Of a DNA stretch of 64,000 nt, positions 2,685-61,177 are shown in pieces; positions within the stretch are counted from its first letter, which is position 1; the number at the start of each line of letters is the position of its first letter. The stretch lies in NCBI RefSeq assembly GCF_003018255.1, contig NZ_CP027440.1; one strand, given 5' to 3'. The DNA is from Escherichia coli (GTDB lineage Bacteria > Pseudomonadota > Gammaproteobacteria > Enterobacterales > Enterobacteriaceae). Both the position numbers and the translations under genes were made by a program. Below the pieces are notes generated by a model, which saw only the letters and a list, made by a program, of their open reading frames with translations, was not told where the DNA came from and made no database searches.

Positions 2685-3026
2685 TCAGGCGACTTTCTGT
2701 TTACCCGCAATCACCCCAATAAATTCCCGCACCTGCTTTTGTTTACGCGCCGACAGCTTGCACACCTGGCGCAGCGACTGCATTAGCTCGCTCTCTTCGG
2801 GGGCGGGTGGTTGGGCGGTGAGGACAATACAGCCTTCCATCACTTTGACAGCTATCGCCGTGCCGGTGGCAAAACCGGCGGCTTCCAGCCACTGACCTTT
2901 CAGGGTGATGGCGGGAATACGGCTGTAATCCGGGTAGCGACTCGCATAACTCACGGTTAATTGACGGTTATTTGCCGGGGAGACTTCTGCTTCGAACGGT
3001 TGTGCAATAGAATGCGTGTCAGTCAT
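2685..3026 (-). CDS. symE: SymE SOS-induced toxin (type I toxin-antitoxin, AbrB-fold RNase-like), 113 aa
   Basis: Translation from ATG at 3024-3026 ([52 protein letters not shown]...) matches SymE; AAGGA Shine-Dalgarno; the ORF-track N-terminal extension is probably not translated. Confidence 0.85.
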
Positions 3027-3097
3027 AACTGCTATTCCTTGAAAATAGTGATTGTGATGAGCGGTGCGGGTGTGTTGGCGCACATCCGCACCGCGCT
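3020..3097 (+). ncRNA. symR: SymR-like cis-antisense sRNA covering the symE start codon and 5' UTR (approximate ends)
   Basis: Plus-strand -10 TAGAAT at 3008-3013 with weak -35 TTCTGC; the start would fall a few nt inside symE, as described for SymR; a 14-bp stem-loop at 3062-3095 could be the 3' end. Boundaries are inferred. Confidence 0.4.
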
Positions 3098-25331: not shown

Positions 25332-25355
25332 GTTTCTTAATAGTGTGTTGTAAGC

Positions 25356-25395
25356 CGGAGAAGGCGTGTAGGCCGCACCTTATGCGACCTACACA
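25356..25395. repeat. REP-like palindromic unit(s)
   Basis: CCGGAGAAGGCGTGTAGGCCGCACCTTATGCGACCTACAC resembles REP palindromic units. Confidence 0.4.
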
Positions 25396-34335: not shown

Positions 34336-34422
34336 TGGTGCGAGGGGGGGGACTTGAACCCCCACGTCCGTAAGGACACTAACACCTGAAGCTAGCGCGT
34401 CTACCAATTCCGCCACCTTCGC
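34336..34422 (-). tRNA. leuV: tRNA-Leu (anticodon CAG), third gene of the leuQPV operon
   Basis: Reverse complement reads GCGAAGGTGGCGGAATTGGTAGACGCGCTAGCTTCAGGTGTTAGTGTCCTTACGGACGTGGGGGTTCAAGTCCCCCCCCTCGCACCA (87 nt, encoded CCA). Confidence 0.95.
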
Positions 34423-34456
34423 ACAGTCATCTTACTTTTTTTGATATTGCCTCGTT

Positions 34457-34543
34457 TGGTGCGAGGGGGGGGACTTGAACCCCCACGTCCGTAAGAACAC
34501 TAACACCTGAAGCTAGCGCGTCTACCAATTCCGCCACCTTCGC
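34457..34543 (-). tRNA. leuP: tRNA-Leu (anticodon CAG), middle copy; variable-arm C-to-T variant relative to the flanking copies
   Basis: Same 87-nt sequence except plus-strand A at 34496 (tRNA sense GTGTTCTTAC instead of GTGTCCTTAC). Confidence 0.95.
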
Positions 34544-34571
34544 CCAGTGCGAGCAATATCAACGTGGTTTT

Positions 34572-34658
34572 TGGTGCGAGGGGGGGGACTTGAACCCCCA
34601 CGTCCGTAAGGACACTAACACCTGAAGCTAGCGCGTCTACCAATTCCGCCACCTTCGC
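34572..34658 (-). tRNA. leuQ: tRNA-Leu (anticodon CAG), promoter-proximal copy
   Basis: Identical 87-nt tRNA-Leu sequence. Confidence 0.95.
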
Positions 34659-34727: not shown

Positions 34728-34802
34728 TAGTTAATTATCGACAGAGGTGTAATTGCTGGAAAAATGTCCATCAGCGGATTGTGGATAATTCGTTTGTCGG
34801 TC

Positions 34803-34842
34803 AGATAAGGCGTGTACGCCGCATCCGACACGGTATGCGGCG
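34803..34842. repeat. REP element
   Basis: GATAAGGCGTGTACGCCGCATCCGACACGGTATGCGGCG palindromic unit between rsmC and leuQ. Confidence 0.5.
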
Positions 34843-40600: not shown

Positions 40601-41674
40601 GTGGGGCAGCGAATACCTGTAACGCTTGGTAATATTGCGCCGTTGTCGCTAAGGCCGTTCCAGCCTGGACGAATAGCTCTGGTGTGCGAAGGCGGCGGAC
40701 AGCGTGGAATTTTCACGGCTGGCGTGCTGGATGAGTTTATGCGCGCGCAGTTTAATCCTTTCGATCTTTATCTCGGCACATCTGCCGGGGCGCAGAACCT
40801 CTCGGCGTATATCTGCAATCAGCCCGGTTACGCGCGCAAAGTCATCATGCGCTATACCACAAAACGCGAATTTTTCGATCCATTGCGCTTTGTCCGTGGA
40901 GGAAATCTTATCGATCTCGACTGGCTGGTGGAGGCCACTGCAAGCCAGATGCCGTTGCAAATGGATACCGCCGCGCGGTTGTTTGACAGCGGCAAATCGT
41001 TTTATATGTGCGCCTGTCGTCAGGATGACTATGCGCCGAATTACTTTTTACCAACCAAACAAAACTGGCTGGATGTGATTCGCGCCTCCAGTGCGATACC
41101 TGGCTTTTATCGTAGCGGAGTGTCGCTGGAAGGCATTAACTACCTGGATGGCGGGATCAGTGATGCGATTCCGGTTAAAGAGGCGGCAAGGCAGGGAGCA
41201 AAAACCTTGGTCGTCATCCGCACCGTGCCGTCGCAAATGTACTACACGCCGCAGTGGTTCAAACGCATGGAACGCTGGCTGGGTGACAGTAGCCTGCAGC
41301 CGCTGGTCAATCTGGTGCAGCATCATGAAACCAGCTATCGTGACATTCAGCAATTTATTGAGAAACCACCGGGCCAGCTGCGGATATTCGAAATTTATCC
41401 GCCGAAGCCGTTGCATAGTATCGCGCTTGGCAGTCGGATTCCGGCGCTGCGTGAAGACTATAAACTTGGGCGTTTATGCGGTCGTTATTTTCTGGCAACG
41501 GTCGGTAAGTTATTGACTGAAAAAGCGCCGCTTACCCGCCATCTGGTGCCGGTGGTGACGCCGGAATCGATTGTCATTCCGCCTGCGCCAGTCGCCAACG
41601 ATACGCTGGTTGCCGAAGTGATCGACGCTCCGCAGGCGAACGACCCGACATTTAACAATGAGGATCTGGCTTGA
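40601..41674 (+). CDS. yjjU: Patatin-like phospholipase YjjU
   Basis: GxGxxG (CEGGGQRG) and GTSAG serine-hydrolase motif; GTG start at 40601. Confidence 0.85.
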   Translation: MGQRIPVTLGNIAPLSLRPFQPGRIALVCEGGGQRGIFTAGVLDEFMRAQFNPFDLYLGTSAGAQNLSAYICNQPGYARKVIMRYTTKREFFDPLRFVRGGNLIDLDWLVEATASQMPLQMDTAARLFDSGKSFYMCACRQDDYAPNYFLPTKQNWLDVIRASSAIPGFYRSGVSLEGINYLDGGISDAIPVKEAARQGAKTLVVIRTVPSQMYYTPQWFKRMERWLGDSSLQPLVNLVQHHETSYRDIQQFIEKPPGQLRIFEIYPPKPLHSIALGSRIPALREDYKLGRLCGRYFLATVGKLLTEKAPLTRHLVPVVTPESIVIPPAPVANDTLVAEVIDAPQANDPTFNNEDLA

Positions 41675-42450
41675 TTTGCCGTTTTATCGACACCCACTGC
41701 CATTTTGATTTCCCGCCTTTTAGTGGTGATGAAGAGGCCAGCCTGCAACGCGCGGCACAAGCGGGCGTAGGCAAGATCATTGTTCCGGCGACAGAGGCGG
41801 AAAATTTTGCCCGCGTGCAGGCGTTAGCGGAAAAATATCAACCGCTGTATGCCGCATTGGGCTTGCATCCTGGTATGTTGAAAAAACATAGCGATGTGTC
41901 TCTTGATCAGCTACAGCAGGCGCTGGAAAGGCGTCCGGCGAAGGTGGTGGCGGTGGGGGAGATCGGTCTGGATCTCTTCGGCGACGATCCGCAATTTGAG
42001 AGGCAGCAGTGGTTACTCGACGAACAACTGAAACTGGCGAAACGCTACGATCTGCCGGTGATCCTGCATTCACGGCGCACACACGACAAACTGGCGATGC
42101 ATCTTAAACGCCACGATTTGCCACGCACTGGCGTGGTTCACGGTTTTTCCGGCAGCCTGCAACAGGCCGAAAGGTTTGTACTGCTGGGCTACAAAATCGG
42201 CGTAGGCGGTACTATCACCTATCCACGCGCCAGTAAAACCCGCGATGTCATCGCAAAATTACCGCTGGCATCGTTGTTGCTGGAAACCGACGCGCCGGAT
42301 ATGCCGCTCAACGGCTTTCAGGGGCAGCCTAACCGCCCGGAACAGGCTGCGCGGGTGTTTGACGTACTTTGCGAGTTACGCCCGGAACCAGAAGATGAGA
42401 TTGCCGAAGTGTTGCTAAATAATACGTATACGTTGTTTAACGTGCCGTAG
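41671..42450 (+). CDS. yjjV: TatD-family metal-dependent hydrolase/DNase YjjV
   Basis: (M)ICRFIDTHCHFDFPPF... TatD motifs; TTG start overlapping the yjjU stop. Confidence 0.85.
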   Translation: MICRFIDTHCHFDFPPFSGDEEASLQRAAQAGVGKIIVPATEAENFARVQALAEKYQPLYAALGLHPGMLKKHSDVSLDQLQQALERRPAKVVAVGEIGLDLFGDDPQFERQQWLLDEQLKLAKRYDLPVILHSRRTHDKLAMHLKRHDLPRTGVVHGFSGSLQQAERFVLLGYKIGVGGTITYPRASKTRDVIAKLPLASLLLETDAPDMPLNGFQGQPNRPEQAARVFDVLCELRPEPEDEIAEVLLNNTYTLFNVP

Positions 42451-42667
42451 GCCGGATAAGGCGTTCACGCCGCATCCGGCAGTTGGCGCACAATGCCTGA
42501 TGCGACGCTTGACGCGTCTTATCATGCCTACAAGTCTGTGCCGAACCGTAGGCCGGATAAGGCGTTCACGCCGCATCCGGCAGCTGGCGCACAATGCCTG
42601 ATGCGACGCTTGACGCATCTTATCATGCCTACAGGTCTGTGCCGATCCGTAGGCCGTATCCGGCATG
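42447..42667. repeat. BIME-type tandem array: two ~100-bp units (each carrying two REP palindromes) plus a partial third unit
   Basis: Units 42447-42547 and 42548-42645 are near-identical (GTAGGCCGGATAAGGCGTTCACGCCGCATCCGGCAG...TGCCTGATGCGACGCTTGACGC...) followed by GTAGGCCGTATCCGGCATG. Confidence 0.65.
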
Positions 42668-43531
42668 TCACAAATATAGCGCCGGAAATATTAACCGGCT
42701 CACCCCGCGCTCCCATAACGCATCAGCCAGTTGTTCCACATCCTCCGGCGTGGCGCTCGGCCAGCTTTGCGCCTCGCCATACACGCCGTGGGCATGAAAC
42801 GCGTTCAGGCGTACCGGAACATCGCCAAGTCCCTTGATTAACGCCGCCAGTTCTTCGATGTGTTGCAAATAATCCACCTGGCCAGGGATTACCAGCAAAC
42901 GCAGTTCCGCCAGCTTACCGCGCTCTGCCAGCAAACAGATGCTGCGCTTGATCTGCTGATTATCGCGTCCGGTTAATTGCTGATGACATTCGCTCCCCCA
43001 CGCTTTGAGATCGAGCATTGCGCCGTCGCACACCGGAAGCAATTTTTCCCAGCCGGTTTCGCTCAACATGCCATTACTGTCCACCAGACAGGTGAGGTGG
43101 CGCAGTTGCGGATCGTTTTTGATAGCAGTAAACAGCGCCACCACAAACGGTAGCTGGGTCGTGGCTTCGCCGCCGCTTACCGTTATCCCTTCGATAAACA
43201 GCACTGCTTTGCGGATATGGCTAAGCACCTCATCCACGCTCATGGACTGCGCCATTGGCGTGGCATGTTGCGGACACATCTTCAGGCAGGTATCACATTG
43301 CTCGCAGACCACAGCGTTCCACACCACTTTGCCGTCGACAATCTGCAACGCCTGATGCGGACACTGCGGCACGCACTCTCCGCAATCATTACAGCGCCCC
43401 ATCGTCCACGGATTGTGACAGTTTTTGCAGCGCAGATTGCAGCCCTGCAAAAACAGAGCCAGACGACTGCCTGGCCCGTCAACGCAGGAGAAGGGGATAA
43501 TCTTACTGACTAAAGCGCATCTGCTGTTCAT
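42668..43531 (-). CDS. yjjW: Glycyl-radical-enzyme activating enzyme (radical SAM) YjjW
   Basis: CxxxCxxC cluster motif ([12 protein letters not shown]) plus additional Cys-rich ferredoxin-like motifs; 287 aa. Confidence 0.85.
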
Positions 43532-60223: not shown

Positions 60224-60565
<342 letters not shown>

Positions 60566-60570
60566 TTTTG

Positions 60571-61177
<607 letters not shown>

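Follow-up and report, generated by a model that had tools for sequence, protein, structure and literature searches.

The spacer between the convergent genes yjjV and yjjW of Escherichia coli is occupied by an ordinary BIME-2, already catalogued as EcoCyc REP352 in K-12. In the window, the 64,000-nucleotide stretch of contig NZ_CP027440.1 analyzed here, the array is laid out as two repeats of a Y REP, 12 nt, an inverted Z2 REP, and 16 nt, followed by a terminal Y. We have high confidence in the explanation as a whole, namely that the locus carries an allele of REP352 that entered in the Escherichia lineage, has expanded and contracted in steps of 101 bp and, by analogy, would exert modest local effects. 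The parts of the array and the flanking genes are as follows, in window coordinates.

41671-42450, + strand: yjjV, TatD-family metal-dependent hydrolase, 259 aa (ORF and RefSeq annotation).
42447-42481, + strand: Y REP of unit 1, with GTAG on the + strand; the stem starts at 42451.
42482-42493: inner linker of unit 1 between Y and Z2, 12 nt, GTTGGCGCACAA, locus-specific.
42494-42531, - strand: Z2 REP of unit 1, with GTAG on the - strand and CTAC on the + strand; a CATGCC foot variant breaks one pair.
42532-42547: outer linker of unit 1 from CTAC to the next GTAG, 16 nt, AAGTCTGTGCCGAACC, locus-specific.
42548-42582, + strand: Y REP of unit 2, identical to the Y REP of unit 1.
42583-42594: inner linker of unit 2, 12 nt, GCTGGCGCACAA, one difference from unit 1.
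42595-42632, - strand: Z2 REP of unit 2, in which one stem pair is lost to a G-to-A change (GCGTC to GCATC).
42633-42648: outer linker of unit 2, 16 nt, AGGTCTGTGCCGATCC.
42649-42665, + strand: terminal Y REP remnant, 17 nt, GTAGGCCGTATCCGGCA, with an 18-nt internal deletion.
42668-43531, - strand: yjjW, glycine radical enzyme activase, 287 aa, with the stop codon TGA at 42670-42668.

Tandem Repeats Finder reports a single array at 42445-42656 with a period of 101, 2.1 copies, 96% matches, no indels, and a score of 396. A repeat search resolves it into two 101-nt copies (42445-42545 and 42546-42646, 96% identical) and the 18-nt start of a third (42647-42664, 83%). The two units differ at four positions. 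The exact 35-nt Y REP is present twice in the array, and so is the exact 38-nt Z2 REP, with 0.00 matches expected from dinucleotide shuffles of the window. The original prediction had placed a tandem BIME unit, with two REP palindromes per copy, at 42447-42667; the element is indeed seen there, these limits running from the first GTAG to the base preceding the yjjW stop codon. The near-identity of the pair also held, whereas the predicted unit length of 98-101 bp is corrected to exactly 101 bp. The stop-to-stop spacer between yjjV and yjjW measures 217 bp in the window. The convergent orientation of the two genes, likewise predicted, is found both in the ORFs and in the annotation of NZ_AP025214.2, a record 100% identical to the window in this region.

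The Rfam model RF02564 (naRNA4) matches both units end to end on the + strand, at 76.6 and 70.9 bits, above the gathering score of 59.5; the scores on the - strand, 54.2 and 48.2 bits, lie under the 59.5-bit threshold. Since this model was derived from the Y-l-Z2 unit of REP325, the match independently types one palindrome as Y and the other as Z2. In the alignment to the model, its Y hairpin is matched by the Y-type REPs at 42447-42481 and 42548-42582, with 11/11 stem pairs, and its Z2 hairpin by the Z2-type REPs at 42494-42531 and 42595-42632. REP and inverted REP alternate, Y carrying its GTAG on the + strand and Z2 on the - strand, and are separated by linkers of 12 and 16 nt. By definition, a BIME-2 repeats z2 and y REPs several times in tandem with short linkers between them, and a BIME-1 combines y and z1 REPs with a long L linker that bears an IHF site (Ton-Hoang et al. 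2012). A Z1-like pattern has no match anywhere in the window, the array included, at up to five mismatches.

The array is extragenic, lying between the stop codons of yjjV and yjjW, save for the GTAG that overlaps the yjjV stop. Its predicted position downstream of yjjV is therefore mostly right and strictly wrong, since the stop codon of yjjV, a TAG at 42448-42450, belongs to the first Y REP as part of its GTAG. The first Y stem begins at 42451, 0 nt past this codon, and thus lies on the yjjV side within the 15-nt limit of stop-codon proximity. On the yjjW side, only the weak hairpin of the deleted Y is close, and the first full REP is 35 nt off. The 3' end of yjjV is dimorphic in E. coli. 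An NVP* allele, which takes its stop from the GTAG of the Y REP, is carried by the window, K-12, KOr021, and M22546. An NVRG* allele, followed by the 10 nt TTTACCCTTC and an internally deleted first Y, is found in O157:H7 and many other E. coli, as well as in E. albertii and in one divergent Escherichia lineage. Citrobacter has a GTG valine codon in common with the NVP* allele, and NCTC86 shows a third yjjV junction, GGGTAG-AACC-GTAGG.

A partial third unit had also been predicted. The third element is incomplete, as proposed; it is not a truncated unit, and the strain alignment identifies it as an internally deleted terminal Y REP. The sequence GTAGGCCGTATCCGGCA at 42649-42665 corresponds to a Y REP whose interior has lost 18 bases between a pair of GCCG direct repeats; in strains KOr021 and M22546, as in E. 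albertii, the terminal Y keeps its full length. As read from this alignment, the true architecture is n x (Y-Z2) plus a terminal Y. The remnant keeps only a 4-bp hairpin, with -5.9 and -6.8 kcal/mol as + and - RNA, respectively.

The number of units differs among strains, as had been predicted. For this comparison, the coding flanks only (594 nt) served as the BLAST query, and the span of the joined place gave the spacer length. The flanks were joined into one place with at least 80% query coverage in 5,389 of 5,423 genomes, joining being possible only for gaps up to ~800 bp. We sampled 59 complete E. coli genomes in even steps down the match ranking, across which the span of the joined place is distributed over classes ~101 bp apart, corresponding to about 0-6 units:

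633 bp: 0 units, 2/59 genomes.
715-716 bp: 1 unit, 13/59 genomes.
816-834 bp: 2 units, 11/59 genomes.
916-917 bp: 3 units, 3/59 genomes.
1017-1019 bp: 4 units, 12/59 genomes.
1118-1122 bp: 5 units, 17/59 genomes.
1220 bp: 6 units, 1/59 genomes.

A base-by-base dissection of ten strains revealed that the 0-unit strain keeps a single intact Y REP. K-12 (EPI300) carries 4.1 copies of the 101-bp unit at the same site, with a spacer of 419 bp as compared with 217 bp in the window. In NZ_CM148325.1, which belongs to the sample, only the yjjW half of the flank query was matched. The ~34 genomes with no joined full-length place may hold longer arrays, insertions, or deletions at the junction.

A collapsed or falsely duplicated repeat was named by the original prediction as the case that would overturn it, and tandem repeats of 101 bp, shorter than long reads, could be mis-resolved by short-read assemblers. 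Independent assemblies, however, agree within each lineage. A span of 817 bp is shared by four complete assemblies that are independent of one another and whose flanks are ~100% identical; E2348/69 (four records) and LF82 (two records) give 816 bp, as do the O157:H7 records; and the span is 1019 bp in DH1 and C600, both derived from K-12, with EPI300, dissected directly, also showing four units. Furthermore, the four differing positions between the two units anchor them. The concordance of spans within lineages rules out an assembly artefact, to which we assign a negligible probability, and shows that the locus changes slowly relative to clonal spread.

The whole unit occurs at a median of 39 places per genome, REPs being ubiquitous, and the linker junctions at 1-6 places (median 2). 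The linkers are thus specific to the yjjV-yjjW locus, and the unit was accordingly amplified in place. Orthologous loci in other species were located by a degenerate pattern from the coding end of yjjV. No spacer exists in Enterobacter cloacae, Leclercia, Superficieibacter, and related genomes, where the stops of yjjV and yjjW are contiguous or overlap; one example of overlapping stops is CTATAG, read on both strands. Citrobacter species have other REP-like palindromes or none at this locus, and E. albertii has Y-Z2-Y. The spacer-free relatives mark the array as an insertion of the Escherichia lineage. Judging from these relatives and from the E. coli strains with a single REP, the array is dispensable for yjjV and yjjW. 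In our reading, the element came into the yjjV/yjjW junction within the Escherichia lineage, and the array has since grown and shrunk by whole 101-bp steps, presumably through unequal recombination or replication slippage between near-identical units, possibly with the help of a REP-associated transposase.

For core genes, the sequence around the array shows uncommon diversity. Over the 200 bp of coding sequence that adjoin the array, identity to K-12 is 91% on the yjjV side (42251-42450) and 92.5% on the yjjW side (42668-42867), and it is ~96-99% further out. Identity of at least 99% over the 594-nt flanks is reached in only ~10 of 5,423 E. coli genomes, most genomes lying at 90-95%. Elsewhere in the window, a single, non-amplified BIME is located at 60570-60647, between ORFs 60239-60565 (+) and 60638-61174 (-). 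It is composed of a Z-like REP, GTAGGCCTGATAAGACATGGCGCATCAGGCA, a 13-nt linker, and an inverted Y-like REP with a degraded tail in which CCTGC replaces CCTAC. Degenerate REP-like matches, with 2-3 mismatches to the Y tail, are present at 25350-25392 and 34796-34812. The second of these adjoins a tRNA-Leu cluster, where three tandem tRNA-Leu(CAG) genes lie at 34336-34658 (-) with a spacing of 115-121 bp. A SymR antitoxin RNA at 3021-3097 (+) (RF01809, 91.7 bits) implies a symE/symR toxin-antitoxin locus.

Local folding gives the Y hairpin of unit 1 an energy of -20.9 kcal/mol as + RNA and -21.3 kcal/mol as - RNA. The Z2 hairpin reaches -14.7/-15.2 kcal/mol in unit 1 and is weakened to -9.2/-13.4 kcal/mol in unit 2 by the G-to-A change, a stem mismatch that is uncompensated. 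Folding of the whole region yields z-scores of -5.3 (+) and -7.3 (-). The minimum-free-energy structure of the whole region is a long duplex in which Y pairs with the Z2 of a neighboring unit; this was taken as a global-folding artefact of inverted repeats, and the local hairpins were used. Similarly, the ORFs that run through the array (83 aa on the - strand; 114 and 67 aa on the + strand) were dismissed as read-through of palindromes. Among 22 full units, 14 of them distinct, variation is found mainly in loops and linkers, and the few stem changes are pair-breaking. The 14 distinct units contain no compensatory changes, and 94.9% of cells are paired, no better than in shuffles, the stems barely varying. 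The variation between units neither supports nor refutes selection on structure.

Transcripts from either gene would carry strong REP hairpins in both 3' UTRs. By analogy with REP325, which acts as a stabilizer and a partly Rho-dependent attenuator according to a 2026 preprint, these hairpins would block 3'-5' exonucleases and so protect the upstream mRNA, and would attenuate read-through into the opposing gene, partly via Rho. REPs between convergent genes have been correlated with higher expression of both genes. The Y hairpin directly past the yjjV stop occupies a position reported to slow translation termination, and REPs at most 15 nt from a stop codon reportedly stall ribosomes and down-regulate translation (Liang et al. 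2015, as described by others). The preprint of Nielsen and Hansen places REP352 within this 15-nt limit, with an overlap of 2 nt with yjjV, and counts it among the eight REP regions that showed exonuclease-protected coverage upon stress with SDS or copper. In the supplements of the REP325 preprint, yjjV is absent and yjjW appears once, as a row of a gene-level statistics table. By this analogy, stabilizer and attenuator roles in the 3' UTRs, as the original prediction had them in part, are plausible, and the effects are likely local and modest. At the DNA level, a gyrase map found cleavage enriched in a subset of BIME-2 with a preference for y REPs, which would make the Y REPs of the array candidate gyrase sites. 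Binding of gyrase, also proposed originally, is plausible on the same kind of analogy; yjjV and yjjW were not found in the supplements of that map.

Other functions can be proposed for the array. Because the hairpins are GC-rich and lie between convergent genes, and because ~40% of REPs between convergent genes fall in previously predicted bidirectional terminators, the array might be taken for a bidirectional terminator of the classical intrinsic (Rho-independent) kind. On neither strand, however, does a T-run follow any hairpin of the spacer, and a terminator scan of 42451-42667 is empty. The terminator role of the original prediction therefore fails as far as intrinsic termination is concerned, and we regard this reading as very unlikely; with no intrinsic terminator signature, any termination would be attenuation of the REP type, partly Rho-dependent as in REP325. 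Alternatively, each unit could be a small RNA gene resembling naRNA4, whose product would bind HU and help condense the nucleoid. The original model of REP325 proposes such a role, and on the + strand both units score above the Rfam gathering threshold. The Rfam model is nevertheless essentially the Y-linker-Z2 REP pair, such that a match to it shows sequence and structure only, and the linker of the array is unlike that of naRNA4. Apart from one weak match inside yjjV, there is no promoter-like site in or just upstream of the array, and the 2026 preprint, which counts the senior author of the earlier work among its authors, reports no measurable compaction of the nucleoid by REP325 or naRNA4. 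Taken together, these observations render a small RNA gene highly improbable. General statements that BIMEs bind IHF would favor an element of the BIME-1 (RIB-RIP) type, and the original prediction had named IHF as a ligand. The array instead combines Y and Z2 REPs with linkers of 12 and 16 nt, as against the y and z1 REPs and the long L linker of BIME-1, and the IHF consensus WATCAANNNNTTR is missing from both strands of 42441-42670 at 0-2 mismatches. Since an IHF site is a feature of the BIME-1 L linker and the array, a BIME-2, lacks a Z1 REP, a long L linker, and the consensus, IHF binding is not expected, and that assignment is extremely improbable.

Two further readings concern what the array does for its host. 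It may be purely neutral selfish DNA, with no host consequence beyond filling the spacer, as would agree with the relatives devoid of any spacer, with the tolerance of E. coli for about 0 to 6 units, and with the hairpin-breaking substitutions and internal deletions of Y REPs that pile up at both ends of the array. On the other hand, stable hairpins located 0 nt past a stop codon and in the 3' UTRs of two convergent genes will have a physical effect on ribosomes, RNases, and polymerases, and the sister array REP325 has measured effects. We therefore consider strict neutrality possible but on the whole doubtful. At the opposite end, the array could be a strain-specific expression dial, in which the number of units and two decay events at its ends tune the output of YjjV and YjjW/YjjI. 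One of these events is the yjjV stop that the REP donates in the NVP* allele; the other is the 18-nt deletion, through which a strong Y hairpin 3 nt away from the stop of yjjW is lost. The means may be hairpins proximal to stop codons together with bidirectional attenuation. We put this forward as a speculative and rather unlikely proposal; if it were true, the near-universal deletion of the terminal Y in E. coli would be adaptive and not simple decay. Our preferred reading remains an REP352 allele with probably modest local effects.

The array has little importance beyond its correct annotation. No repeat family is more abundant in E. coli than the one to which REP352 belongs, and differences between strains in the copy number of BIME-2 elements have already been published. 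Rfam naRNA4 matches at REP352 should be read as a Y-Z2 REP pair and not as evidence of a functional small RNA gene. The spacer is a clean length polymorphism in 101-bp steps that is stable within clones, and it could be a minor typing marker. As a natural allelic series at a convergent gene pair, it also offers a convenient test bed for the terminator/stabilizer and stop-codon-proximity models of REP function.

Several known systems resemble the array to different degrees. BIME-1 elements, the IHF-binding RIB/RIP elements, have inverted REP pairs and the Y REP in common with it, but they are single-copy, contain Z1, and possess an L linker that is long and conserved and carries an IHF site, none of which is found in the window array. 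REPINs are REP doublets of ~100 bp, as are the units described here. Binding of TnpA_REP requires the GTAG tetranucleotide and a stem mismatch (Ton-Hoang et al. 2012), and both features of these RAYT targets are present in the Y REPs of the window; REP352 is nonetheless the sole one of the eight stress-responsive REP regions not predicted by RAREFAN to be a RAYT-associated REPIN (Nielsen and Hansen preprint). The tandem Y-linker-Z2 pairs are shared with REP325 (naRNA1-6, the yjdM-yjdN BIME-2 behind RF02564), which is the best experimental model for the function of the array. REP325 differs in its locus, its linkers, and its six units, and it is positioned between co-directional genes of one operon, in contrast to the convergent genes considered here. 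The closest counterpart is REP352a-h of K-12 in EcoCyc. It contains four units (419-bp spacer) as opposed to the two (217 bp) of the window, and its unit variants differ from those of the window at a few loop, linker, and stem positions, while the locus, the 101-bp unit, the yjjV 3' allele, and the internally deleted terminal Y are the same.
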